Of a DNA stretch of 64,000 nucleotides, positions 3,578-58,878 are shown in pieces. Source of the stretch: Actinomycetota bacterium. GTDB lineage: Bacteria > Actinomycetota > Thermoleophilia > RBG-16-64-13. Made by a program: the position numbers and the translations under genes. The DNA lies in the NCBI GenBank assembly GCA_018830645.1, contig JAHJSA010000023.1, forward strand, positions 7,482 through 71,481, written 5' to 3'. The first letter of the stretch is position 1. Each line of letters begins with the position of its first letter. The notes below the pieces were generated by a model. It saw only the letters and a list, made by a program, of their open reading frames with translations, was not told the DNA's origin and ran no database searches.

Positions 3578-4584
3578 GAGGCACCTCCTTCGGGCGCCGG
3601 GGCGGAAACCGAGTCGTCCGGGGTCTTCCAGATGCGGCTCCGGACGCTCTTCACGAGTCCCACTATGCCTTTCGGCATGAACAACATGGTGAACACCAGC
3701 ACGCCGCCGTAGAGGAGCAGGTGTGCTCCCTGGAACTGCGTGCCCAGTTCTGCCCGGGCGATCTCCGCCACGGGCACGAGTATCACAGCTCCCACCAGTG
3801 GGCCCCACACCGTGCCCAAGCCGCCGATGATGGCGAAGAGCAGTATCTGCACCGACACCATCTCGCCGAACACCACGCGCGGACCCACGTAGGTGAAGTA
3901 CTGAGCGAAGAACGTGCCGCCGGCGGCCGTCATGACGGCGCTGAGCACGTTGGCGTTGATCTTCGTGCCCAGGGTGTTCACGCCCATGGCTTCGGCGGCC
4001 TCTTCGTTCTCGCGCACGGCGATGAGCCGATACCCGAAGCGACGGCGGTTGAGCCACTGCGCGGTGAGCACCGCGAGCAACGTCATGACCAGGATGATGT
4101 AGAAGTAGGGCAACTTGCCGTCGAACTGCATCATGAACGGGTTGGTTCCGAGGTACTTCACCTCGAGTCCCGCGGCCCCGCCCATGGCCTTCCAGTTGCT
4201 CACCACGTAGACGGCCGCCTCCGCAAGGGCGATGGTCACCAGGGCGAAGTAGGCACCCTTCAAACCATAGCGGAACGTCGCGTAACCCACGAACCACCCG
4301 GCCGCGGCTGCGAACGCCATCCCCACGAACATGCCCACCCACGGGGTGAGTCCGAAGTTGAGCGCCAGGTACGTCGAGGCGTACGCGCCGATGCCCATGT
4401 AGAGCCCGTGTCCCAGCGAATGCTGGCCGGCGTACCCGCCCAGGATGTTCCAGGAGGTCGCAAGGTACGCCCAGATCAGGATGAGAATACCGATGTGCAC
4501 GTAGTAGGTCTTCAGAAAGAGCGGCAAGAAACCCGCCAGCCCGAAGACCACCACTGGGATGAGGAACTCCCTGTACCTTCTCAT
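3574..4584 (-). CDS. livM: Branched-chain amino acid ABC transporter permease LivM
   Basis: Multi-TM permease with LivM-like sequence; ATG at 4584 overlaps the livH TGA stop (ATGA coupling); the track ORF has a spurious 122-aa N-terminal extension. Confidence 0.85.
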   Translation of the reverse strand: MRRYREFLIPVVVFGLAGFLPLFLKTYYVHIGILILIWAYLATSWNILGGYAGQHSLGHGLYMGIGAYASTYLALNFGLTPWVGMFVGMAFAAAAGWFVGYATFRYGLKGAYFALVTIALAEAAVYVVSNWKAMGGAAGLEVKYLGTNPFMMQFDGKLPYFYIILVMTLLAVLTAQWLNRRRFGYRLIAVRENEEAAEAMGVNTLGTKINANVLSAVMTAAGGTFFAQYFTYVGPRVVFGEMVSVQILLFAIIGGLGTVWGPLVGAVILVPVAEIARAELGTQFQGAHLLLYGGVLVFTMLFMPKGIVGLVKSVRSRIWKTPDDSVSAPAPEGGAS

Positions 4585-15481: not shown

Positions 15482-15633
15482 CGTAGTTGTTTTCCTCCTC
15501 GCAGAAAAAAAGGCGCGCACTAACAGCCGCTTCGCGGTGCGCTAGCGGCTAGTATACCTAGGGGGAAGGCAATTGCAACAAACCACGCTTTGCGGACCGC
15601 GCGGATGCCCCTCGGCCTCGGTAGGTTTGCTGC

Positions 15634-28064: not shown

Positions 28065-28943
28065 TTAGAGAGCCCGCCACGATTCGGGACGCATCACACC
28101 TGTGTCCGGGGCGTCGAGGAACGTGTCGAGCGCGCTAAGCATGCTCTCCTTGTCGGCCGGCAACCTGCCACCCACGGAGACGTAGTTGGAGGCGTGGTTC
28201 GAACGGAACAGCGCGTCAGATACGTTCGTGTGCGCGAGGATCGTGCGGAGCTCACTCAGCATTGACAGAGGATCGGGCACCACGAACTCCCCATTCGCCA
28301 CCCGGCGAGCGAGGGGTGTGCCCTCTACCACCATCAGACTGAGTACGCCGATGAACTGTGGGTCGGTGGCCGAGAGGGCGCGCCCGGTAGCGACGGCGTG
28401 CACCTGCGAGCGTTCCACGCCCGCGAGGCCGAGGATGGCGGTGATGGACATGCTCATGCCGGCGTTGACGGCGCGACGAGAGGCCTCGACCTGCTCCGCG
28501 ACCGTGACGCGCTTGTTGCAGGCTTCGAGGGTGGCGTCATCGCCGGATTCGAGGCCCAAGAAGAGCAGGGTCAGGCCGGCGGCCGCCAACCGGGTCAATT
28601 GCTCCGGGCTCTTCCGCAGCAGCGACTGAGCGGTGGCGTAGGAGCTCACCCGCTCAAGGTGCGGGAGCTCGTCGTGTAGGAGTGAGAGCAGCTCGAGCAG
28701 ACGGCTCTGGGGGAGCATGAGCGCGTCTCCATCGGCTAGGAACACGCGTCGCGCGTGTCGCTTGACCGCCAAGGGAAGACCCCGTACGTCCTCCACGACC
28801 TCCGAGAACGGCCGCACACGAAAGGGCTTCTCCAGGTACGTGGCGCAGAAGGTGCAGCCGTTGTTCGAGCACCCGTAGGTGACTTGAAGGATGAGGCTAT
28901 CTGCTTCACTGGGCGGCCGGATGACGGCGCCTTGGTAGCGCAT
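28065..28943 (-). CDS. Radical SAM domain protein
   Basis: CxxxCxxC motif in LQVTYGCSNNGCTFC; ~292 aa from ATG at 28943 (residue 109 of the track ORF, whose N-terminal extension is unlikely to be real). Confidence 0.7.
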   Translation of the reverse strand: MRYQGAVIRPPSEADSLILQVTYGCSNNGCTFCATYLEKPFRVRPFSEVVEDVRGLPLAVKRHARRVFLADGDALMLPQSRLLELLSLLHDELPHLERVSSYATAQSLLRKSPEQLTRLAAAGLTLLFLGLESGDDATLEACNKRVTVAEQVEASRRAVNAGMSMSITAILGLAGVERSQVHAVATGRALSATDPQFIGVLSLMVVEGTPLARRVANGEFVVPDPLSMLSELRTILAHTNVSDALFRSNHASNYVSVGGRLPADKESMLSALDTFLDAPDTGVMRPESWRAL

Positions 28944-29197
28944 GCGCTGAACGATAGCACAGGGTCGCAGGACATGGTCGCGGGGCAGGTTCGCAGAACA
29001 CAGTCGCAGAAGAGGTTCACCGCTCGGGGGCGATGGCGTTCGGTCGACCGTTCCGCACGCTCCGGCGCGAGGGCGGGAGGCATGCGTCTCCGCGCATGCT
29101 AGGTCGGGCGGGTTCAGTGACGGGGTCATTACATTTGTCCGGCTCCGGTAGGGTAAACTCTGGTAGCAACGATCGAGCTGATCTGGAGTGCGCCGCA

Positions 29198-30265
29198 ATG
29201 GGAGACACATCGTCGATGGACGAGACGGGAGCCGAGCAGGCCGTCGCCACTGAAGCCGACACGGCATGCGCGCTGCCGGGCAACCTTCCGGCGAGTTCGC
29301 CGGCGCCAGGCGCCGGGTCCGCGGGCCGGGACATGGTCGCCACGTACCAGGTGTTCCAGCGGGTGCAGGAGGGCGTGGTCGGCCGGAGCCGCGAGGTACG
29401 CGAGATCTTCGCGGCCATCCTCAGCCGCAAGCACATACTGCTCGAAGGGCCCCCAGGCACCAGTAAGTCGACCATCGTGCGATCGATCGCACGCTCGATG
29501 AACGTGCCCTTCTACTTCATCGAGGGCTCCATCGACCTCACACCCTCGAAGCTCCTCGGCTACTTCAACCCCGGCAAGGTGTTGCAGGACAGTTACCAGC
29601 GCGAGTACTTCGAGATGGGCCCCCTCACTCAGGCCATGGAAGAGGGTGGTGTGCTCTACTTGGAGGAGTTCAATCGCATGAGCTCCGAATCGGCCAACCT
29701 CCTGATCACGCCGATGGAAGAGGGCGTCATCAACATTCCGCGCTACGGCCAGGTCACGGCCCTCGACGGCTTCACCATCATCTGTTCGCAGAACCCCTAC
29801 GACGATGTCGGAACTCTGCAGGTGAGCCGCGCTTTCCTCGATCGGGTGGTGCGCATCCGCATGGACTACCAGTCGGAGGAAGAGGAGATCGAGATCGTCA
29901 AGTTGCGGTCCTGCAACTACGACGACGGGCTGGCCAAGACCGCCGTCCGAGTGACGCGCCTCACCCGCGACACACCTGAGATCAAGCTGGGCGCCTCGGT
30001 CCGCGCGGCCATCGACATCGTGACGATCGTGCAGAACCTCACCCTCCTCTCCGACGACGAGTTGCGTGCCGAAGACCTGGCGGATGCCTGCAAGATGGCC
30101 CTCACGAGCAAGATCTGGCTCTTGGAGACCATCAACGTGACCCCCGAAGAGGTGGTCGACCGCGTGATCGCCCGCGCCCGTCGCGAGCTCGGCGCCGACT
30201 TCTACCTCGGCGCCGACCAGGATAAAAAAAAAGTTTCGCAGAACTCCTGGAGGAGTCGGGGATAG
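29198..30265 (+). CDS. MoxR-family AAA+ ATPase
   Basis: Walker A GPPGTSKST, Walker B LYLEEFNR, sensor residues; start at ATG 29198 (residue 56 of the track ORF); the reading frame continues into the VWA gene if one A is added to the A9 run at 30224..30232. Confidence 0.8.
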   Translation: MGDTSSMDETGAEQAVATEADTACALPGNLPASSPAPGAGSAGRDMVATYQVFQRVQEGVVGRSREVREIFAAILSRKHILLEGPPGTSKSTIVRSIARSMNVPFYFIEGSIDLTPSKLLGYFNPGKVLQDSYQREYFEMGPLTQAMEEGGVLYLEEFNRMSSESANLLITPMEEGVINIPRYGQVTALDGFTIICSQNPYDDVGTLQVSRAFLDRVVRIRMDYQSEEEEIEIVKLRSCNYDDGLAKTAVRVTRLTRDTPEIKLGASVRAAIDIVTIVQNLTLLSDDELRAEDLADACKMALTSKIWLLETINVTPEEVVDRVIARARRELGADFYLGADQDKKKVSQNSWRSRG

Positions 30266-30312
30266 AGCTGCTCAAGCGTCGATTCGACACCGGTGAGATC
30301 ACCGCGTTCGAG

Positions 30313-31119
30313 ATGGCAGAGGCCATCAACCTCGACCCTCAGATGCAGCAGCAGTTCCTCGACGACGAGGAGTTCATAAAGTACTTCGCAAAACTGAACC
30401 ACCTTCTTCGCTCTCGCCTGCGCGAGAAGGCGTTCGTCCTCGCAAAGAGACTGATCTTGAAGGTGGCAAGCCAACTGGTGGGAACCGGAGTGCGCAAGGG
30501 CACCCTTCACCTTCGCCAAGGGACCTTCACCGACGAGATCGACATCGACGCGACCCTCGAGAACCTGGTCACGAACCCACTCGGAGATCTTGAGGAGAAC
30601 CTCGCGATCTGGGACCGCAAGCGAGAGGAGATCGGGTTTGTCATGATGTTCGACCACAGCTACTCCATGCGTGGGCCGAAGATCGTGCTCGCAGCGCTCT
30701 GCATAGCCGCCATCGCAATCTACTTCAAGAAGAACTACGGCGTGGTGGCGTTCAGCACCGATGTGGAGACGGTGAAGACCATCACCGACAAGATACACCA
30801 CGAGACGCTGCTTGATCGCGTCTTCGATCTGCCTATCGAAGGGCTCACCAACATATCGGGCGCCCTTGCCACCGGCCTCGGTCAACTCAAGAGCTACAAC
30901 AAGAAGTTCGGTCTCCTGCTCACCGACGGGGGTTGGACCACCGGCGAAGACCCCATGGCCGTCGCTTCACGGTTCGATCGCCTGAACGTGATCGCCTTTC
31001 CCCCCGCGAATCCCGACAAGGTGCGCCTCATCGCGGAGGCCGGACGTGGTACGTTCCAATTCGTGGACAACGAGGAGGCGATCACCGGCGCGATCGTGAG
31101 AGCCTTGCAGGCGCATTGA
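30313..31119 (+). CDS. von Willebrand factor type A (VWA) domain protein, MoxR partner
   Basis: MIDAS motif DHSYSMRG plus downstream T and D ligands; open frame extends upstream to 30226 with no start codon, suggesting a fusion or frameshift with the MoxR gene. Confidence 0.75.
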   Translation: MAEAINLDPQMQQQFLDDEEFIKYFAKLNHLLRSRLREKAFVLAKRLILKVASQLVGTGVRKGTLHLRQGTFTDEIDIDATLENLVTNPLGDLEENLAIWDRKREEIGFVMMFDHSYSMRGPKIVLAALCIAAIAIYFKKNYGVVAFSTDVETVKTITDKIHHETLLDRVFDLPIEGLTNISGALATGLGQLKSYNKKFGLLLTDGGWTTGEDPMAVASRFDRLNVIAFPPANPDKVRLIAEAGRGTFQFVDNEEAITGAIVRALQAH

Positions 31120-31214: not shown

Positions 31215-32708
31215 CTATGCCGGCACGCCGGCCCCAGCGATCTCTTTGAGCGCCTCGGCCACCGCAGGCTCCAGCGGGATCGGCGCGTGCGTATCGGCCA
31301 CCTCCCAGGCACGGGCGCGGGCACGGGCCACAGGGTCATCGGTGCCCGGGTCCATCCGTGCCCGCGAAAGCAGCTGAGGCCGCCACATGAGGCGCGCGTG
31401 CCGCATCGAATGCTTGGTGGCGAGGAAGTGCCCTCGGGGACCCACCTGCGCAATCGTTTCGAGCGCCAAGGTATCGTCGTCGACTTGAATGGGGCGCGCC
31501 GTGAAGGTGAGGGCGTTCCACAACTCCACGCCCAGAAGTAGCTCCGCCGGATCGCACACCGTCGCATTCTCGAGGAGACCCGGCCCCACCATCGCGTCGG
31601 GCCTCGCGAGCAGTATCATCGTCCCGGTAAGAGCGTCTTCGAAGGCCGACTGCCAGCCCACCCGAGTCGAGCCGCAGGCCATGCCGCCCATGAGAGATGG
31701 CAGCTTGTAGAAGCGGGCCATAGCAGTGGCGGCATTGGTGACCATGGCTTCCTCCGGTGCTCCACCGGCCATGCGGCCGGTCAACGGGTCGAGGACGCTG
31801 GTCATGCAGCTGTAGAAAGCCCTGGCTCCGGGACAAACCAGCCCCAGCGTCGCCAGGGTGCCGATGATCTCCGCGTTCACGATCACCAGATTCCCGGCGG
31901 GACTCGCCGGAGCAGTTCCACAGGCGAGTGGCATCGACACGATGCCCACGGGCACGCCCGCCTCAGCGAACACGAACGCCGCCTCCAAGGCCTCACCCTC
32001 GTTGGCAAGTGGGCTGATGGAACACTGGAAGTTGGACATCACGGGGCGGCGGCGAAGCTCGTCGGCGCCGCCGGCCACGAGCCGCGCCATCTCCACGGCC
32101 GCGCGCGCCTGGTGGGGCTTGGTGACGGTCATGCACTGCACGTGCTTCCCCGTGTTGGCGAAGGTGGCCTCGAGCTCCCAGAGCGGCTGCCTCTCCACCG
32201 GCCGGTCCAGGGCGCTCACCATCTGCCACGCGAAGGCGATCTCTGGGAGGGCGTCGCAGATGCGGGTCAGAGCCGCCAGATCATCGTAGGTGGAATCCCG
32301 CCACTCCCCCGTGAACCGATCCACCATCAGCATGCCGCACCCGCTCGGGCCAAGGTAGGTGGTACAACCGTCCAGTGCCAAGTCGAAGCGCTCGTCGCGG
32401 GCAGCGAAGACGCAGTCTCGCGACAGGAACGAAAGCCCCTTCTCCACGAGCTCGGCGGACATGCGCACCCGGGTGCCTTCGACGCTCGCCCCGTGTTCAG
32501 CGAGCACCCCCAAGCCCCGCTCCCACGGGATGTCGAGCCCCACAGACCCAAGAACGTCCAAGGTGGCCTGGTGCACGCGGTGCACACCATCTTCGCCGAG
32601 CAGATCCAGCCGCGGCAGGTCGGTCGGCGGCAGGAACGCTCCTGGCTGGGAGCCGCCGGCTGCGCCTGCCGGCGCGGTCGACGGCGGCGGTCGGTAGTCG
32701 TTGCTCAC
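31215..32708 (-). CDS. MttB-superfamily methyltransferase without pyrrolysine (uninterrupted ORF; candidate quaternary-amine/methylated-amine:corrinoid methyltransferase)
   Basis: 497 aa, full-length homologue of the trimethylamine methyltransferase family, but no in-frame TAG at the position where the two neighbouring mttB genes carry it. Confidence 0.8.
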   Translation of the reverse strand: MSNDYRPPPSTAPAGAAGGSQPGAFLPPTDLPRLDLLGEDGVHRVHQATLDVLGSVGLDIPWERGLGVLAEHGASVEGTRVRMSAELVEKGLSFLSRDCVFAARDERFDLALDGCTTYLGPSGCGMLMVDRFTGEWRDSTYDDLAALTRICDALPEIAFAWQMVSALDRPVERQPLWELEATFANTGKHVQCMTVTKPHQARAAVEMARLVAGGADELRRRPVMSNFQCSISPLANEGEALEAAFVFAEAGVPVGIVSMPLACGTAPASPAGNLVIVNAEIIGTLATLGLVCPGARAFYSCMTSVLDPLTGRMAGGAPEEAMVTNAATAMARFYKLPSLMGGMACGSTRVGWQSAFEDALTGTMILLARPDAMVGPGLLENATVCDPAELLLGVELWNALTFTARPIQVDDDTLALETIAQVGPRGHFLATKHSMRHARLMWRPQLLSRARMDPGTDDPVARARARAWEVADTHAPIPLEPAVAEALKEIAGAGVPA

Positions 32709-32751
32709 GCCGTATGTCCTCCTTCGAGTGTGGGGCGATCAGGCCGTTGCA

Positions 32752-34158
32752 CTACAGCTCCGCATTGAGCTTCTTTCGGAGGGTTTCGACGGAGGCTATC
32801 TCCACCCCCAACAGCCTCCCGATGCGCGCCTTGGCCGCCAGGCCTCGGGCGGCGCCCGGCATCGCCGTCACCACGCCGATATCGAGCTCCTCACGCAGTT
32901 CTCGCATGACCACCTCGTCGGAGAGGTCGCTGACGCCGACTCCGAGCTTGCCGGCCACGAACGCTTTCGCCTCTGAGATCCGCATCTTGCGATGGAGTTG
33001 CATCCTGGCGACCAGATCTCCGGCCGCGCGGATGCCCCCCATCCCGGAGGCGAGCACGTGTGCCATGGGCATCCCTACGGGATCGCCCACGCCCACCTAT
33101 AACCCGTCCACGCGCCCGATCTCCACCATGGCCACGCTCGCTCGGGTCACGGCGTCCACCGGCGGGGTCTCGCACATGGGCACTCCCCCCACTCCCATGC
33201 CCACATTCGCGTGTATAGGGATGGAAGCGGCCTCGGAACAGGCCTTGACGAAGGTAACCGCCCGGGCGACGTTCCACGCACACGACCTGCGGGTGTTGGT
33301 GTTGACGACAGGGCCGAACACGGCGGCGCCCGCCTTCTCGACCAACTTCACCTGCTGGTGCGGATAGAGACCGGCCAGCCGCTCTCCCTTGTACGTGACC
33401 TCGCCGTGCATGCCGAGTACGAACTCGGCGGCCATACCCACCTGGATCGACAGGTGCGTGTTCGCGGAGAGCTCCTCGACCGCCAGAAGAGTGGCCAGGA
33501 ACTCGGCATCGCCCGCCGAGGCGGTGGTGTCGAAGTCCAGACCGTCTGCTCCGGCGTCTGCCATCTTCCTACCCACGTACACCATGTCGCGGGTGCAGGC
33601 CTCGGCCGCTGCCAGCTGCGCCGCTCGGGCCTCCTCGATCTTGCCCTCAGGGAGCAGATCAGAGGGGTTGCCGAACGGGCCGTCGGGCCGGGCGTAGGTG
33701 GCCAGGTTCGGCATCGCCCCGTAATACACGGGGATGATGGTGCCGAGTAGCACGCTCTCCATGCATTGCTGCTCGTTGGCGACGATGGGCTTCACGGGTT
33801 TGTACGAGTAGTCCGGGTGGCCGAGTTCGATGGTGTCGAAGCCGAAGGCGCGCTCGAAGAGACGGATGGCCTGTTCTCGCGACACCGGCACCCCGACGCC
33901 GCTGTCTCCCTGCTCGGCGTACAACGAACCCGCCACGCCGTCGTCGCTGAGCACGACCTCACGGCCGGGCTCCACTCCCACGATGCGCCCGGGATAGGCG
34001 AAGAGGTCGAATAGGTGGTCGCGCTCCTGCTCGGTGATGGTAGGGATACGCCCGCGGTCGGCCGCGTCTTCCGTGCCGGCCAGGATGTCGGCACGGACCT
34101 TGTCCGAGGACATCGCCTCAACGCGCCCATCGCCCATGCGCATGCGGTGGCTCGGCAT
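32752..34158 (-). CDS. mtbB: Dimethylamine:corrinoid methyltransferase MtbB, pyrrolysine-containing (in-frame UAG at 33097..33099)
   Basis: Two adjacent in-frame track ORFs (33097..34158 and 32752..33096) separated only by TAG; junction ...[33 protein letters not shown] matches the MtbB Pyl site; N-terminus MRMGDG..GDSGVG is also MtbB-like; ~468 aa in total. Confidence 0.9.
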
Positions 34159-35639
34159 CAGTTTCCTCCTTGGTTCCGGGCCGGACGGCCCAGGTGTTTC
34201 GCGATGACCGCCTCAGCTTCCGGGGGCAACGGCGCTACAGAGTGCTTGGCGAGGATCCTTCGGGCAACGGCGAGCGCCCGAGCGTGGGCGTCCTCACCCC
34301 CGCGCTTCTCCCAGGCGCCCCGCATGCGACGGTCGATCACCTGAGCCTCCGACTGCTCGCGACGAGCCAGTTCCCGGGTATGCCTCTCGCGCAGGAAGTT
34401 GCCATCGGACCCTACTCTCAGAATGGATTCGAGACCGATGGAGGCGACATCGCTGCGGATGCCTTCGAGCACCCGCCGGTTCATGCGTGCGATCTCGTCA
34501 TCCATCACCATCTGACCGAAGTCGAAGGTCAGGCCTAATTCGAGCATCCCCATGCCATAGATCAGGTTGGCCCCTGCCAACGCTGGTAACAGACTGGTGA
34601 GGGTCTTCTCGTGGCCCGCCTGCACGTCGGGTAGTTTGCTGTCTGCCTAACCGCCGGCCACCCAGCAGGGCAGGTAGTAGAACTCACTCATCTCGGCGAC
34701 GGCGGCGGAGATGAGGGCGAGTTCGGGAGCTCCGACGGGCGCAGTGGCGTGGCGCAGGTCGAAGGTGGTGGTGCTGCTGCCGTAGATGACCGGAGCCCCG
34801 GGGCGGGTGAGTTGAGCGAGCGTAAGCGCCGAGAGCACCTCCGCGTTGTGGGTGACCATGGTGCCGGACAGGCTGATCGGACCGGTCGCCCCGGCCATGG
34901 CCATGGAGATGACGTTCGAGGCGATCCCGTGGCGCGCGCACCCCATCATGATCTCCGGGGTGGGCGAGTAGAGGGCCAGGGGACTCGTGGGGCAGGTGTC
35001 GATGGAGAATATGGGGCGCTCGCGCAAGGCTTCAGCCCCGCCGACCACCGCTGCCCCGATCTCGGCGAGTTCATCGATCTGCTCTCCGGTCTCGACGCCC
35101 GCGTGCACGTGCTTCGTGGTATTGCGGAGCGCCGCGACGAAGCCCTCCAGGTAGGCGCTCTCGGAGGGCACGTCGGTGGGCGTCACCGCCATCTCGAAGG
35201 TATCGCACATCTCGAGGGCGTCGCAGAGCCGAGCTATGCGGGCGAGATCGTCCAGGGTGGAGTCCCGGTGCTCCCCCGTCTCGAGATCGTAGACTTTGGT
35301 GCCCTCACCGAAGTTGGTGTAGCCCACCGAACGGCCGCCCATGAGGTAGTCGCGCTCGCCATCCCGCGAGGCCAGGAGGATCGTGCCCGGAGCCGACTCC
35401 AGTGCCTCTTCAACCACGTTCCGGGGGAAGCGGACAATCCGCGTGTGGGTGTCCACGACGCACCCTGCCCCGTCGAGGACATCGAGCGCCTCGTCCACCG
35501 GCACCTTCACACCGGCCGTCTCGAGAACGACCAGGGTGGCCTCATGGATCGCTTCCCGACCCGCGGCGCCCAACACATCGAAGCTGAGCCGCGGTACGCC
35601 CGCTCGCTCCTCATCCCTCAGCTTCTCTCTCCACCCCAT
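34158..35639 (-). CDS. mttB: Trimethylamine:corrinoid methyltransferase MttB, pyrrolysine-containing (in-frame UAG at 34647..34649)
   Basis: Track ORFs 34647..35687 and 34158..34625 share a frame across a single TAG: ...[51 protein letters not shown]; ~493 aa from ATG 35639 (RBS AAGGAAGG), Pyl at ~331 as in MttB. Confidence 0.9.
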
Positions 35640-35644
35640 ATGCC

Positions 35645-36169
35645 TCAGGCCTTCCTTTCCAGAGCGGGATCTTCGGGGACTTCCCACATATAGCTGAACT
35701 TCTCGTTCCCCAGGATGGTGAACACCTCGGTTGAGAGAATGCTCCCGCCCGGCGCGAGCGGGCCGCCGAGGAACTCAAGGAGCTCCTCGCTTCCTCGGAA
35801 CACGGCTTCCACCAGGAGGTTATAACGACCGGTGCAGTACCCCACCCAGCACACCCGGTTGAGTGCGGCGAAGGCGCGGGCGACCTCCCGCAGATCGCCT
35901 GCGACAACATTCACGCCGATCATGACGTTGATGGGATAGCCGGTGGCCGCAGGGTCCAGCAAACCCACGATCTGCATCACTCCGGTTTCGTGCAACCGTT
36001 CGATGCGTTTGCGCACCGTGGGCACGGACACGCCGGTGGCCCGCGCGATCTCCGCGTTCGGCAGGCGTCCGTCGCTCTGCAGGAGGGCGAGGATCTTGCG
36101 GTCCAGTGAATCAAGGTGCTCCGGACGCGGCTCGCTCCTCCGATGCTCGTCCACCAGACCCCCAGTCAA
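35645..36169 (-). CDS. Lrp/AsnC family transcriptional regulator
   Basis: N-terminal HTH (LDRKILALLQSDGRLPNAEIARATGVSVPTVRKRIERL) and C-terminal RAM ligand-binding domain; directly upstream of mttB. Confidence 0.8.
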   Translation of the reverse strand: MTGGLVDEHRRSEPRPEHLDSLDRKILALLQSDGRLPNAEIARATGVSVPTVRKRIERLHETGVMQIVGLLDPAATGYPINVMIGVNVVAGDLREVARAFAALNRVCWVGYCTGRYNLLVEAVFRGSEELLEFLGGPLAPGGSILSTEVFTILGNEKFSYMWEVPEDPALERKA

Positions 36170-43563: not shown

Positions 43564-43741
43564 CCGAAGACCTTCTGTCCGTGACGACGTCTGCGTCTGA
43601 TGTTGTTGTCGTCGACCCACATGCTGACCTCATCGTCGATGAGCACCGCATCGAACGCGACCCCAATCCCGATTCGCGTCTTGTTCCCGCGATTATCCGC
43701 ACGGGTAAGAACGAGTGCATCGTATCGAAATTTATACTCCG

Positions 43742-43750
43742 GGGGGGGGT
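43742..43750. repeat. G9 homopolymer in the intergenic region upstream of the TetR regulator gene
   Basis: ctccgggggggggtcgag read directly; a lone 9-G run in otherwise non-repetitive sequence. Confidence 0.6.
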
Positions 43751-44602: not shown

Positions 44603-46063
44603 CTACTCCTCCGCCGAGACGATGATCTTCTTCATCGCCTCGTGGACCGCGGGATCGAGCGGCATCGCCTCGTGGGTCTTCAGCAGATCGGCGGCCATAG
44701 CCTCGGCACGCGTCGCCACGTCGGTCCCACCTTTCTTCGTCCATGCTCCCCGCGTACGCCTGTCGAAGAGCTTCACCTTCGACTGCTCCGAGGGCATGTA
44801 CTTCAGCGTGTGCTTCTCCTTCAGGAAGTTCTTGCCCGAACCGATCTTGTGGATCACCTCGGTGCCGATGGTGTCGTTGTCCACGGGTGAACCGCGCACC
44901 ACGCGCTTGACCATCGAGGCGATCTCGTTGTCGATCAGGAGCTGTCCGTAGGAGAACGTGACACCCAGTTCGAGCATCCCCATACCGTATATCAGGTTGG
45001 ACCCTGCCAACGCTGGTAGCAGACTGGTGATGGTTTTCTCGTGCCCGGCCTGAGCGTCGATCACTTTGCTATCCGCCTAACCACCGGCAACGTAGCTCGG
45101 CAGATTGTAGTAGTTGGACAGTTCGGCCACCGCCGCGGAGATCATGCCCAGCTCTGGCGCCCCTACGGGGGCCGTGGCGTAGGTCATGTCGAACATGGTG
45201 GTGGAGCTTCCGTACATGGCGGGAGCGCCCTTGCTGGTGAGCTGCGCCAGCGTGAGGCCGGCCAGCACCTCTGCGTTGTGGGTGACCAGCGTGCCCGATA
45301 CCGACACCGGGCTCGATGCGCCCGACATGGCCATGCTGAGCACGTTGATGGGGCATCCCCAGCGCGCGCTCTCCATGATGACCTCGCAGGTCACCGTGTG
45401 GAGCATCAGGGGGCTGGTGGGGCACACCAGGGTGGAGACCAGCGGCCTCTCCCGGAGCTCCCTGTCGCCGCCCGCGATGAGCGCGGCCATCTCGAACATC
45501 TTGCGGGCGTTGGCACCCGAAGAGACGTCGATGTGATGCACGTGCTTACTCGTGTTCAGGAACGCGGCTTCGAGCATGTGCAGGTCGTATGAGGCGTCGG
45601 GCATGTCGCGAGCGACGACGGCCGTCGAGTACACGTCGACGTTCTCCATCGCGTCGCAGGCGAGCGCCGTCCTTCCCATGTCTTCCTTTGTGGTCTCGTT
45701 CACTTCGCCCGTCTCGGGATCGGTGACCATGATCCCGCAGCCGAAGTTGGTGTAGCCCACGTGCTTGCCGCCCATCCAGTAGTCGTACCTGGGATCGCGC
45801 GCCGCGAGCAGGATGCTGCTCGGGCACGACGCCAGGGCTTCCTCGACCACGTAGGCCGGGAACTTCACGATCTTGGTGGCACGATCGACGATGCAGCCGC
45901 CCTCTTCGAGAACGTCCACTGCTTCCTCGAGATGAACCTCGACCCCGGTCAGCCGGAGGACTTCCAGCGTGGCGTCGTGGATGGCGTCGAGCTGACTGCT
46001 CGAGTACATCCTGAGACCCCAGCCTTGGTATTCCTCCGTACTGGCTCTCGGTCCTCGGATCAT
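44603..46063 (-). CDS. mttB: Trimethylamine:corrinoid methyltransferase MttB (second copy), pyrrolysine-containing (in-frame UAG at 45077..45079)
   Basis: Track ORFs 45077..46165 and 44603..45064 are in frame across one TAG: ...[54 protein letters not shown]; paralogous to the 34158..35639 copy. Confidence 0.9.
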
Positions 46064-52307: not shown

Positions 52308-52379
52308 TGGAGGAGAGTCCGGGAGTCCAACCCGGCTACGAAGATTTAGAGTCTCCGCGGTCATGCCGACCAACCCTCC
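52308..52379 (-). tRNA. pylT: tRNA-Pyl (CUA anticodon) gene pylT
   Basis: Minus-strand 72-nt sequence GGAGGGTTGGTCGGCATGACCGCGGAGACTCTAAATCTTCGTAGCCGGGTTGGACTCCCGGACTCTCCTCCA folds with a 7-bp acceptor stem, single U8, a 4-bp D stem with 5-nt D loop, a 6-bp anticodon stem, loop CU-CUA-AA, a 3-nt variable loop and a 5-bp T stem. These are the hallmark atypical features of tRNA-Pyl. Confidence 0.85.
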
Positions 52380-53486: not shown

Positions 53487-54887
53487 CTATCCCATCTTCG
53501 CTTTCAGTCTGTCCACACTGTTGATACTGATACCGAGCAATTCTGCGATACGGATCTTAGCCTCTATCCCCTTGGCGCATCCGGGCACTGAGGTGATCAC
53601 ACCTATGTCGAGGTCTTCGCGCATCTCCCGCATCACCGTGACCTCGGAGAGGTCGGCGACGCTGATCTTCAGCTTGTCGGCCACGTAGGCTTTGGCTTCC
53701 GGTAGGCGCATCCTGCGCGCGAGCTGCATCCGAGCGACCAGGTCTCCGGCCGTACGGATGCCGCCCATACCAGCGGCCACCCCGTGGGCGATGGGCATCC
53801 CGTAGGGATCGCCCACACCCACCTATAATCCGTCGACGCGGGCGATCTCGACCATCGCGACCGAGGCCCGCGAGACACTGTCGATAGGCGGGGTCTCGAA
53901 CACCGGGGAGCCACCCACCCCCATGCCCATGTTCACGTGCACCGGGATGTTGGCCACCGCGGTGACCGCCTTGACGAAGGTGACGGCGCGGGCAAGGTTC
54001 CAGGCCATCGACTTGCTGGTGTTGGTGTTCACGACAGGTCCGAAGATGTCGCCTCCGGCCTTCTCGACGAGACCAACTTGGTGGTGCGGGTAGAGCCCGG
54101 CGAGACGCGTGCCGTCGTACTCGAGCTCGCCGTGGATACCGAGTACGAACTCCCCGGCCATGCCAACCTGGATCGCAAGATTCGGGTGTTTGGCCTTCAG
54201 CTGCTCGACTGCCTGAAGCGAGGCTTTGAAGTCCGCGTCGCCCGCCGCGCCCGTCGTATCGAAGTTCACGCCGTCGGCGCCCACCTCGGCCAGCTTGCCG
54301 CAGATGTAGACGATGTCGCGGGTCGCGTGCTCGACCGCCAGTTCCTGGGCCTCACGCGCCTCCTTGATCTTGCCCATCGGCAGGAGGTCGGAGGGGTTGC
54401 CGAACGGGCCGTCGGGCGCGTAGTAGGTGCCGAGGTTCGGCATGGCTCCGTAGAAGATGGGCACGATGGTGCTGAGCAGGATGTTCTCGAGCGCCTGCTG
54501 CTCCTGGGCGATGATCGGCTTGACCGGCTTCCAGGAGTAGTCCACATGCCCGAGTTCCATGGTATCGGCCGCGAAGGCCCGCTCGTGCACCTGCACGCCC
54601 TGCAACCGGCTCAGCGGGATACCGACCCCGCTGTTGCCTTGGTCGCCGTCGAGGCGCAACGTGCCGATGTCGTGCGTGAGTACGACCTCGTTCCCCGAGT
54701 CGACGCCCACTACGCGCGCATTGCTCTTGAAGAGGTCGAGCAGGAAGTCGATCTCGTCGTCTTTGAGGGGTGGGATGCGGCCGCGATCGGCTGCGTCTGC
54801 GGAGCCGGCGATCAGATCGGCCTTCAGCTCGTCAGCCGTCATATCGATCACGTGCCCGTCCCCCATCCGGGTCGGGTACTTCGTCAT
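53487..54887 (-). CDS. mtbB: Dimethylamine:corrinoid methyltransferase MtbB (second copy), pyrrolysine-containing (in-frame UAG at 53823..53825)
   Basis: Track ORFs 53823..54887 and 53487..53822 abut in frame across TAG: ...[33 protein letters not shown]; N-terminus [24 protein letters not shown] is MtbB-like. Confidence 0.9.
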
Positions 54888-57453: not shown

Positions 57454-58878
57454 CTACCAGTGCTTGTAGTTGACGCCGAGATCCTGCATCGCTTTCACGG
57501 CTTCGTCGTACACGGCCAAATACTCGGCGGTGGGAACGACCTTGATCGGGTCGTAGCACTCGTCGAACGGCTGACCCGCCGGCGCCGTCTTGTAGTCTTT
57601 CTCGTAGCTGCCCACCAGAGCGTCGAGGATACGGTTGGCCTCTTCGAGCGGCATCCCGGCCACCGCGTGGGCGACCTCGCCCATGAAGCGGGCCTCGAGC
57701 CCCGTGGTCTTGTTCGTGGCCACGCCTTTGGCCGAGGCAACTCCGGAGAGTATCTCGCGACCGCTGACGGTGTCGGTGATGGACTGAGCCGCAGTCTCGA
57801 GCAGGCACATCTTCGTGCCGGGCCCCGCGACTGTGTAGTACTGGTTGCCCAACATCAGGTTCGTGTGCTCCTCGATGGCCCGTGCGCAGTGCCCGGCTAC
57901 CGCCAGCGGCTCCCTGGCCGTGGTGATGCCCCACCGCACGTGGATGGGCCCGTCGAGATGCCACGTCGCCTGCGTCATCACGAACGCGTTCAACGTGGTG
58001 GCCACGTCGACGATGGTGGTCTCTTCGAGTCCACCCGCGTACCCTCCGAAGATGGGCATCTGCTCGCACATGATGATGTTCCCGGCTAGTACGTAATGAG
58101 CGGTGAAGGTCAACGCACCTACGTCGATCTTCAGCTCATTGAGCTGGGACACTTCATGGCTGTCAGACTGCCGCATCCCCCCGGGGAAGTCGGCTGCGAT
58201 GACTCCACCGGGAGACAGGGACGTCTCATTGCCCTATAACCCCATCCCGGGCCTGCCGGCCCTTGCCTGAGCCAGGCGGACCTGGTAGGCCTCTTGCCTC
58301 ACGGCAGCAATCTCCCACGGGCTGTTCGGTGTGGGGTCGTAGCCGTTGATCGTCTGCATCACCCCGTCCACGATGGTGTCTACGATGCTTTCCTTCGCGT
58401 AGGATTCGTGGATCGGCAGGAAGAGCGGCTCGGAGCATGGAGCCCCGGTAGGCCCTCCTTGGATCACCGGCGGCCTGGTGTCCTTGTGACTGCGAGGGCT
58501 CAGGAGCCGCGAATCACGCCCCTCCCCCAGCACGCAGGACTTGGGCGCCGCTGCAATACTGGCCCACACCTCTTCTTCCGTGTACTTGATCACGCGCCCG
58601 GTATCCATGCAGTAGATACCGCACTCCACCAGCATCTCCATGCCGGCTTTGAAGAGGTTGGCTACCAGTGCGGGGTCCGTGGGGACCATGACCTTCTTGT
58701 CCATCTGGATGCCGTGCTTCTCTTTCAAACGCGAGGCCGTCTTGGGGATGATCTCGTAGTCCCACGCGTTCTCATCCACACGCTGGCCGGTCTTCGCACG
58801 GTTGAAGGCTTCGAAGACGGTGACCTTCTGCGCTAGCGCCACGTTGGCTTCCCCCCTTTCTCTCGATCGGATGTGCAT
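57454..58878 (-). CDS. mtmB: Monomethylamine:corrinoid methyltransferase MtmB, pyrrolysine-containing (in-frame UAG at 58234..58236)
   Basis: Track ORFs 58234..58878 and 57454..58176 are in frame across TAG: ...ARAGRPGMGL-TAG-GNETSLSPGGVIAADFPGGMRQSDSHEVSQLNELKID, colinear with the MtmB Pyl-202 region (AGRPGMGV-O-GPETSLS...TDSHEVSQLNELKID); ~474 aa. Confidence 0.9.

Follow-up and report, generated by a model that had tools for sequence, protein, structure and literature searches.

A conserved poly-A tract as a probable programmed recoding site between MoxR-class ATPase and VWA frames found near pyrrolysine-type methylamine methyltransferase genes

In a 64,000-nucleotide stretch of the Actinomycetota contig JAHJSA010000023.1 (Thermoleophilia; the whole stretch is called the window below) a run of nine adenines (A9) joins a reading frame for a MoxR-class AAA+ ATPase to an overlapping frame, displaced by -1, for a von Willebrand factor A (VWA) domain. 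Comparison with relatives suggests that the A9 is a conserved programmed recoding site, acting through either transcriptional slippage or ribosomal frameshifting, within what is functionally a single gene, a reading that is given a probability of about 0.85. Transcriptional slippage is the most likely main route, with -1 ribosomal frameshifting as its chief rival. The anatomy of the junction, its conservation, its relationship to in-frame fusion proteins and the modelled fold were observed; slippage itself, its efficiency, the assembly of the products and their client are inferred. In the mechanism proposed, standard decoding would yield a short NorQ/CbbQ-like AAA+ ATPase terminating a few codons past the run, and some expression events would shift the frame to -1 within the run, with RNA polymerase slipping on the nine adenines to give an A10 mRNA and a -1 ribosomal slip on A_AAA_AAA as a possible contributor. 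The shifted product of ~640 aa (~70 kDa) would comprise the ATPase, a flexible hinge (ADQDKKK), a helical linker and a VWA domain containing a metal ion-dependent adhesion site (MIDAS), with the junction peptide ...DQDKKKSFAELLEE... (DKKKSFAE / ...GADQDKKKSFAELLEE).

Standard decoding of the window crosses the run as ...GAT AAA AAA AAA GTT... (...DQDKKKVSQNSWRSRG). The first-pass annotation of this DNA, made by a model from the letters and a list of open reading frames (ORFs), had described MoxR and VWA frames joined across an A9, and most of its description held: the run lies at 30224-30232, the 0 frame ends shortly after the KKK (TAG at 30263-30265), the -1 frame is free of stops into the VWA ORF and on to the TGA at 31117-31119, and none of ATG, GTG or TTG comes before the ATG at 30313 in that frame. 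Two details had to be amended, namely the GC content, put at ~67% for the genome and measured at 64.9% for the window, and the heptamer, which had been likened to the dnaX-type A AAA AAA G and which in the phase of the 0 frame is A_AAA_AAA rather than A_AAA_AAG. The -1 frame, reading KKSFAELLEESGIELLKRRFDTGEITAFEMAEAINLDP..., is open from 30226 only, being shut upstream by the TAA at 30223-30225, such that any shift must occur inside the run. The overlap of the two frames is confined to the span from the run to the 0-frame stop, and joining the -1 ORF to the ATPase requires a -1 shift or an mRNA with ten adenines.

Judged by its sequences, this ATPase-VWA family has fusion as its norm. A conceptual fusion, made by inserting one additional A into the run, is covered over 99% of its length by homologues at 38-46% identity, which are single proteins of 600-680 aa (AAA+ then VWA) from Desulfobacterales, other Proteobacteria, Anaerolineae and archaeal metagenome-assembled genomes (MAGs), in keeping with the earlier suggestion that recoding would give a MoxR-VWA fusion. 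Close relatives (74-97% identity, from Thermoleophilia and Gaiellales MAGs) are 330-362 aa long and correspond to the first half only. Comparison of orthologous pairs, which the first-pass annotation had proposed, found all 27 of the close protein clusters whose C-termini were read to be split at the KKK, each ending in D, E, G or S followed by KKK and 2-6 residues, and ~29 DNA loci with the VWA part at -1; no in-frame close relative was found in a 5.8-billion-protein database. Orthologues with separate genes and no conservation upstream of the ATG, which that annotation had named as the observation that would count against a fusion, were not found within the clade; separate genes appear only at 31-39% identity. 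These distant relatives, such as those on Rhodococcus plasmids (annotated there as separate genes), have MoxR and VWA genes cleanly separate and without an A run, and the two Rhodococcus matches (from a search of a plasmid collection that gave only distant MoxR homologues) are useful only as an outgroup state.

The DNA loci (labelled L) were taken from GTDB species representatives and metagenomes. Exactly T-A9 with the VWA part at -1 was found in L001-L004, L006, L007 and L021, with the 0-frame stop 2-3 codons on, and an independent ENA metagenome contig (L098) has the same junction as the window (GAT-A9-GTTTCGCAG), giving eight Thermoleophilia-type loci of this form. The 355-aa 0-frame product from 29198 is identical on two public contigs, one of them the independent ENA contig. 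In a ninth Thermoleophilia-type locus, L005, the run is interrupted as A4GA4 (GAT AAA AGA AAA G, 920-932), yet the VWA frame is intact and still lies at -1; an error in the consensus, decay of that copy or a short-run ribosomal slip that suffices could each account for this. Beyond the Thermoleophilia type, ~20 further -1 loci have runs of A9-A14 (Thermincola, Desulfobacterales-like and Syntrophaceae), including Thermincola ferriacetica of the Bacillota (L008, L009; CTA AAA AAA AAG), a Syntrophaceae MAG (L010; A10) and ~17 metagenome loci with A9, A10, A11, A13 or A14, every one in the -1 arrangement, which brings the total of ~29 loci to three phyla. Among 27 loci tallied the run is A9 in 13, A10 in six, A11 in six, A13 in one and A14 in one, with a minimum of nine. 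A T stands immediately 5′ of the run in 21/27 of the -1 loci, for instance at L001 4891-4909 and L043 3933-3960, creating a TAA in the -1 frame, and the 0-frame tail after the run is 1-11 codons long, ending in TAG in 23/27 loci. The VWA frame is under purifying selection, with 71-95% amino-acid identity and invariant MIDAS residues.

The run itself is kept against the coding habits of its surroundings. In 12 window genes lysine is encoded by AAA 13 times (three in the run, 10 outside it) and by AAG 105 times, with a GC content at third codon positions of 0.83, and three consecutive AAA codons are therefore unexpected; the run is also the sole A run of at least eight in the window, which bears out the remark that an A9 is conspicuous here. 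Other long homopolymers in the window are G9 (43741-43749), C8 (63042-63049) and A7 (15505-15511). AAA AAA AAA is retained in relatives that have diverged at 43-44% of the flanking third positions, the flanks upstream of the run in the Thermoleophilia-type loci showing differences of 0.27, 0.27 and 0.44 at codon positions 1, 2 and 3. Over the 86 nt that separate the run from the ATG, taken as -1-frame codons, the pairwise differences among eight relatives are 0.26, 0.20 and 0.43 at the three codon positions, and the same stretch aligns with the linker of the in-frame fusion proteins; by its pattern of substitution, the stretch between the run and the ATG at 30313 is evolving as -1-frame coding sequence. 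The conserved split, the in-frame homologues and this -1-frame evolution upstream of the ATG strongly support the -1 frameshifting or transcriptional slippage that had been put forward from the sequence of the window.

The 0-frame stop in relatives arises from a -1-frame valine codon, GTA, which is rare (21/378 Val codons). The window is exceptional in its clade in having GCA GAA instead of GTA GAG, which extends the tail of the short product to 10 residues. A link between the TAG identity of this stop and pyrrolysine decoding was considered and rejected as unnecessary, the conserved Val-Glu or Val-Gly of the -1 frame leaving GTA-G as the only route to a stop.

A neighbour-joining tree of the ATPase domains places the poly-A forms in one clade (Thermoleophilia, Thermincola and Desulfobacterales-like), within which two groups of in-frame fusions are nested (L016/L056 and L020/L022/L027/L035). 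The nested fusions keep an A10 or A11 at the homologous position, with a -1-frame stop 0-2 codons past the run, as in A10-TGA. A +1 arrangement occurs in L057 (3924-3936), where GCA AAA AAA AAA TGA places a 0-frame TGA directly after A10, and two related loci differ in run length (GGC-A14 in L044, GCT-A13 in L045) with the -1 relation unchanged. That the run varies from 9 to 14 with the -1 relation kept indicates that the frame relation is selected rather than the outcome of random insertion and deletion. Outside the poly-A clade are in-frame fusions without an A run (archaeal and Anaerolineae-like) and, further out, separate MoxR and VWA genes. What is conserved, on this comparison of sequences, is a slippery tract paired with an alternative-frame stop close to it, and the DNA-encoded frame itself varies; such a pattern would be expected if short and long isoforms were both needed, slippage yielding them in either arrangement.

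Several loci depart from these forms. L017 and L018 each have one in-frame stop within the ATPase or linker (TAG at about 3718-3720 and TGA at about 1501-1503, respectively), are otherwise in-frame and have no more than a residual A6 where the slip site would be; pseudogene formation, error or another kind of recoding could account for them. Two runs occur in L050, A9 and A8 (3896-3934 and 4341-4348), followed farther along by a second frame break, and L035, its in-frame sister, has A9 and A11. A second, in-frame A8 run (..IEKKAVVMMLD..) lies just 5′ of the VWA MIDAS in one Desulfobacterales-like subclade.

Both halves of the conceptual fusion are recognisable domains. The ATPase half matches Pfam AAA_5 (PF07728) at 74.1 bits against a cut-off of 22 over profile positions 1-138 of 139 and, as the N-terminal half of the fusion, also AAA_3 and bpMoxR; the C-terminal half matches VWA (PF00092; 28.1 against 23.8) and VWA_CoxE (PF05762; 26.5 against 26.4). 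Across 55 homologues the ATPase motifs GPPGTSKST, LYLEEFNR, SQNP and VSRAFLDR are invariant or near-invariant, with Walker A and B and the arginine residues intact, and the MIDAS residues D441, S443, S445, T506, T531 and D532 are invariant. An AlphaFold2 model built from an alignment of the 55 homologues has a mean predicted local distance difference test score (pLDDT) of 88.3, with a helical linker at 301-384 and a VWA fold at 392-595 showing a Rossmann-like alternation of strands and helices; the sole segment with pLDDT <50 is residues 294-300 (ADQDKKK), the slip site. Foldseek gave NorQ as the best match of the ATPase (9qh9_C; E = 2.7e-17, template modelling (TM) score on the target 0.85, root-mean-square deviation 2.8 Å), followed by CbbQ (6l1q and 5c3c; TM 0.81-0.85), with TM 0.81-0.87 for NorQ/CbbQ overall, and the nearest solved sequences are midasin AAA modules, the MoxR protein 2r44, NorQ and CbbQ. 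By profile and modelled fold the ATPase is a MoxR-class AAA+ protein of the CbbQ/NorQ (AAA_5) subgroup, and the C-terminal half is a VWA domain with a MIDAS motif. Membership of the Mg-chelatase I/D family was ruled out by profile scores far below the cut-offs (20.1 bits against 499.55 for BchD-ChlD, TIGR02031; 25.1 against 779.45 for the cobaltochelatase, TIGR02442) and by the absence of BchI/ChlI chains from the best 60 PDB sequence matches; a match to PF01078 was limited to residues 149-201.

The choice between slippage and frameshifting turns on the run and its surroundings. Runs of more than seven adenines are a recognised slippage motif and Thermus dnaX slips on A9, acting without dedicated stimulators (PMC3711429). 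The site has sequence features by which a slippage site is recognised, namely a conserved A run of at least about 8-9 at a frame junction, maintained against codon bias, and downstream of it an ORF with homologues in one frame and a prompt stop in the other; the DNA is consistently A9 in the separate assemblies. The run reaches at least nine in 27/27 loci and its codon phase varies, with 12, 5 and 10 loci in the three phases, both of which point to slippage. No conserved RNA structure was found: the RNAalifold consensus for eight junctions of the Thermoleophilia type has 8 pairs and an energy of -2.28 kcal/mol, and in 22 loci the minimum free energy (MFE) of 45-nt segments, ranked as percentiles against the rest of the gene, had medians of 0.47 downstream and 0.51 upstream of the run, with no enrichment. 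Stimulators of the dnaX type (a downstream hairpin or pseudoknot, and a Shine-Dalgarno-like element ~10 nt upstream) were likewise not conserved, the Shine-Dalgarno spacing being judged by eye. Taken together, the minimum of nine, the variable phase, the +1 and in-frame forms and the lack of a conserved stimulator favour slippage over frameshifting. A 141-nt fold of the window (30180-30320) gave z = -2.29 with a strong hairpin just 5′ of the run; as a slippage stimulator this was rejected, since it stems from a local LGAD...LGAD repeat that is absent in relatives.

The same short and long products would be made if the shift were mainly ribosomal, tRNA-Lys moving by -1 on A_AAA_AAA (A_AAA_AAG in Thermincola) along a faithful A9 mRNA, which is judged rather unlikely as the principal route. 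An in-phase X_XXY_YYZ heptamer is present in every -1 locus and is the exact dnaX heptamer in Thermincola, single loci have a strong downstream hairpin (L002, -25.0 kcal/mol, 1st percentile; L004, -17.2; L047, -17.5), and the A4GA4 of L005, too short for slippage, could allow a single-tRNA slip on A_AAA_G. In addition, A7-A11 cassettes of another gene cluster gave 10-63% shifted product in E. coli, the mechanisms not being separated (PMC3711429). However, the stimulatory structure is not conserved, and seven adenines would be enough for frameshifting, yet none of the 27 loci has fewer than nine; nor is the codon phase of the run conserved. The +1 form of L057 and the in-frame A10-TGA forms are most simply explained by insertions and deletions at the RNA level. 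The purine-rich GAGG/AGGA motifs lie just 2-5 nt 5′ of the run. From dnaX and prfB, a spacing of 2-5 nt is too close for a dnaX-type -1 stimulator.

Certain observations weigh against a fusion made by slippage. The interrupted run of L005 would abolish slippage and the locus nevertheless keeps the -1 arrangement, so that either a short-run ribosomal shift suffices there or the copy is decaying. An ATG at the 30313 position is present in 7/8 Thermoleophilia-type loci and would allow the independent start of a shorter VWA protein, and distant family members act as two separate genes, such that covalent fusion is not obligatory. Ribosomal frameshifting by -1 on A_AAA_AAA is compatible with all the sequence features as well, and A10 transcripts and the junction peptide are predictions.

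That ATG is also the basis for regarding the locus as two ordinary genes, the ATPase ending at the TAG at 30263 and the VWA protein starting at 30313 by independent initiation or reinitiation, with the A run incidental and the products non-covalent partners as in NorQ/NorD and CbbQ/CbbO. Public annotation does call two genes, MoxR proteins and their VWA partners are as a rule distinct polypeptides (PMC4660213; PMC13036017), and the relatives at 31-39% identity have them cleanly apart. This arrangement is nonetheless improbable. The 26-29 start-free codons ahead of the ATG show the third-position-biased substitution of the -1 frame and align with the fusion linker, no GGAGG/AGGAGG-type ribosome-binding motif is present in the 16 nt 5′ of the ATG (GATCACCGCGTTCGAG), the start in L007 is GTG, and in other clades the first -1-frame starts lie 6-67 codons past the run at positions that are not conserved. 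It would also leave unexplained three AAA codons against a 10:1 bias to AAG, the T before the run, the rare GTA that supplies the 0-frame stop and a -1 relation that holds from A9 to A14.

DNA polymerase, too, slips readily on poly-A tracts of 9-14 (PMC3711429), and in-frame and out-of-frame forms with A9-A11 both occur in the family, as do loci of differing run length (L044 and L045), all of which would be expected if replication changed the run and so, within populations, toggled the VWA fusion between on (in frame) and off (A9). Such phase variation is very improbable. All eight intact-run Thermoleophilia-type loci and the independent L098 contig have exactly A9, the 27/27 split clusters lack any in-frame close relative, the Desulfobacterales-like runs change length by substitution at the edge (GGC-A14 against GCT-A13) rather than by frame-toggling indels, and the in-frame forms make up two coherent subclades instead of being scattered; the difference in tract length or frame among close relatives that marks a phase-variable locus was not seen. 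Scarcely credible is a homopolymer error hiding a true A10, or a recent inactivating frameshift, both of which the first-pass annotation had entertained, since although homopolymers are error-prone and some long-read loci (L006, L011, L050) have extra frame breaks, the arrangement is identical in ~29 loci from many studies and platforms, the same A9 stands in eight assemblies with the exact junction in the independent ENA assembly, no in-frame close relative exists, the VWA frame with its invariant MIDAS is under purifying selection and the 0-frame stop close after the run is itself conserved.

Table 1. Coordinates of the junction, the domain motifs and the pyrrolysine (Pyl) features; positions are those of the window unless a locus is named (PYLIS, pyrrolysine insertion sequence)
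Feature	Position	Strand	Remark
A9 homopolymer, putative slip site	30224..30232	+	0 frame AAA AAA AAA (KKK)
0-frame ORF, predicted short product, MoxR-class AAA+ ATPase (CbbQ/NorQ type)	29198..30265	+	ends ...DQDKKKVSQNSWRSRG
0-frame stop TAG, ends short product	30263..30265	+	10 codons 3′ of run
-1-frame TAA	30223..30225	+	T preceding run and first two A's of run
-1-frame ORF: helical linker domain, then VWA domain with intact MIDAS	30226..31119	+	stop TGA 31117-31119
Run-to-start stretch, -1-frame protein SFAELLEESGIELLKRRFDTGEITAFE	30233..30312	+	without ATG/GTG/TTG; conserved as protein
First ATG of -1 frame; VWA start if translated separately	30313..30315	+	first of ATG/GTG/TTG there
Walker A GPPGTSKST	29447-29473	+	ATPase half
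MIDAS motif DHSYS	30652-30666	+	VWA half
In-frame A8 run before MIDAS	L022 1463-1470, L027 2827-2834, L035 2027-2034, L050 4341-4348		
tRNA-Pyl, anticodon CTA	52308-52379	-	pyrrolysine island of window
PYLIS Rfam hits, five	within the pyrrolysine-island intervals 31215-35687 (-), 44980-45079, 52308-52379 (-), 53726-53825 and 58137-58236		mtbB x2, mttB x2, mtmB-type x1
MtbB ORF split at Pyl UAG	33097-34158, continued 32720-33096	-	stops at profile position 353/463
MttB ORF split at UAG	34647-35687 and 34158-34625	-	stops at 337/500
MttB-superfamily protein, full-length 497 aa, no internal stop	31215-32708	-	349.6 vs TIGR02369 cut-off 525

Three ATG codons, at 29033, 29198 and 29333, are candidate starts of the ATPase ORF, with the conserved core running from near 29333 and N-terminal extensions that vary among relatives and are not conserved; the longest form, from 29033, overlaps a divergent radical-SAM gene (28065-29267). 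A radical-SAM gene adjoins the ATPase frame in Thermoleophilia, in the window in this divergent orientation, and also in L043, the two not being close homologues. Downstream, the VWA frame is adjoined on the opposite strand by the MttB homologue at 31215-32708, which is probably a non-Pyl protein judging from its score below the TIGR02369 cut-off. The closest locus to the window, L001, is from the MAG 'Actinomycetes bacterium LH_M24'.

Synteny of the poly-A MoxR~VWA gene with Pyl-type mtbB, mttB or both extends over three phyla, Actinomycetota, Bacillota and Desulfobacterota (L001, L004-L009, L042-L045, L049, L060, L064, L094 and the window at 31215-35687), the link falling within the locus sequence in ~16/29 of the -1 loci; it was not found in the in-frame relatives that were checked. 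In L043 the order is corrinoid protein, mtbB, DUF2284, MoxR~VWA (A11) and radical SAM, and in L008 it is mtbB, DUF2284, EamA, MoxR~VWA (A9) and mttB, such that DUF2284, a predicted metal-binding protein, stands between mtbB and MoxR~VWA in both. L020 (1489-2974), an in-frame A10 member, has a CobW/COG0523-type metallochaperone GTPase and rubrerythrin directly upstream on the same strand, neighbours that hint at a metal-insertion role for the family. No literature linking MoxR/VWA proteins with pyrrolysine systems was found, and searches on pyrrolysine with Thermoleophilia, on slippage with VWA and AAA+, and on DUF2284 with corrinoid returned nothing relevant.

A reason for making a sub-stoichiometric VWA-bearing form is suggested by the related chaperones, in which a CbbQ hexamer binds a single CbbO (CbbQ6O1 was measured, and one VWA per MoxR hexamer was proposed to be general; PMC4660213) and a single VWA finger of NorD enters the pore of the NorQ hexamer (PMC13036017). 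By analogy with CbbQ6-CbbO1, NorQ6-NorD and midasin, the two isoforms, sharing the ATPase module, would co-assemble into a hexameric ring carrying one or a few VWA arms as the minority component, and the frequency of slippage would set the ratio of ATPase to ATPase-VWA, as for tau and gamma of dnaX. Since the gene lies within pyrrolysine-type methylamine methyltransferase operons, the client is probably a component of that system, a methylamine methyltransferase or a corrinoid protein rather than Rubisco or nitric oxide (NO) reductase. It is tentatively proposed, at rather less than even odds, that MoxR~VWA could be an unrecognised maturation or reactivation factor of bacterial Pyl methylamine methyltransferases, moving with mtbB/mttB in three phyla and having a subunit ratio set by slippage and a single client-binding arm.

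Were it such an accessory factor, one operon would combine two recoding events, UAG read as pyrrolysine and slippage on poly-A, and methylamine metabolism would gain an uncharacterised ATPase/VWA factor that neighbours DUF2284 and radical-SAM genes in the pyrrolysine operons of bacteria, including those of an actinobacterial lineage. For annotation, databases show two ORFs across the clade ("MoxR family ATPase" and a truncated "VWA protein"), the VWA product being mis-started at an internal Met, and recognition of the recoding site would correct dozens of gene models. If both isoforms are needed, the family would be a natural case in which evolution has toggled the DNA-encoded frame (-1, in frame and +1) with the tract kept. 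For recoding biology it offers a well-populated multi-phylum case, in which retention of the poly-A while the frame relation switches is unusually clean comparative evidence for selection on both isoforms, and a simple system for the tuning of slippage efficiency by run length (A9 to A14). For the AAA+/VWA chaperones it would represent a naturally evolved genetic answer to the 6:1 stoichiometry problem of CbbQO and NorQD.

Among known systems the nearest in genetic form is the 'magnesium chelatase' cluster, whose 23 genes shift by -1 at A7-A11 (Antonov et al., 2013, Nucleic Acids Research 41:6514; PMC3711429), in which reporters in E. coli gave 10-63% shifted product, increasing with run length (PMC3711429), and which has been reviewed by Atkins et al. 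(2016; PMC5009743). There too a -1 shift on a conserved A-rich stretch (A7-A11, with A_AAA_AAR) connects two overlapping ORFs of ~1 kb each, the upstream one an AAA+-type 'chelatase' ATPase, in-frame fusions occur elsewhere and the pair is annotated as two adjacent genes. That cluster was described from Pseudomonas, Burkholderia, Delftia, Herpetosiphon, Methanocaldococcus and Methanococcus, with fusions in Chloroflexus and Rubrobacter, and none of these genera featured in the top 120 hits when the family was searched twice, one search being seeded with an Anaerolineae fusion. The ATPase here is of the AAA_5/NorQ-CbbQ type and not of the ChlI/BchD type, and in that paper the downstream domain is unnamed and neither a pyrrolysine/methylamine link nor poly-A-retaining in-frame forms are described (PMC3711429). 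It appears to be a different family, as judged by absence from the top hits and by profile scores rather than by direct alignment.

In dnaX, as proposed here, one gene gives rise to long (tau) and short (gamma) AAA+-family subunits that share an N-terminal ATPase and in that system form one complex at a set ratio. The in-frame A10-TGA members (L020, L022, L027 and L035) match the logic of Thermus dnaX, with the long form by standard decoding and the short form by slippage, whereas in the window the polarity is reversed, the short form being standard and the long one the predicted product of slippage; the protein families are different and functionally unrelated. E. coli dnaX, with its -1 frameshift on A_AAA_AAG, differs further in that the family here has no conserved upstream Shine-Dalgarno element or downstream hairpin.

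In protein architecture the likeness is to CbbQ-CbbO, the Rubisco activase, and NorQ-NorD, which inserts Fe into NO reductase, both combining an ATPase of the NorQ/CbbQ fold with a VWA partner bearing a MIDAS. In these systems, however, the VWA partner is a separate, larger protein with its own gene, whereas here the VWA domain would be attached to a copy of the ATPase, and no recoding is reported in the cited papers on either. Midasin/Rea1 is the covalent version, with six AAA modules and one VWA. BchD (ChlD) of Mg-chelatase has an AAA+ module, a flexible charged linker and a C-terminal VWA/integrin-I domain, an order that the long isoform shares, and the short isoform would correspond to BchI; the match to the BchD-ChlD profile is nevertheless a weak one, and no CobN/BchH-type partner was seen in the gene neighbourhood. 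Poly-A recoding between an AAA+ ATPase and a VWA domain is therefore of a known type and is new for the ATPase-VWA family described here, for which no earlier report was found. The added interest lies in its multi-phylum conservation, in the toggling of the frame with the tract retained and in its setting within pyrrolysine operons.

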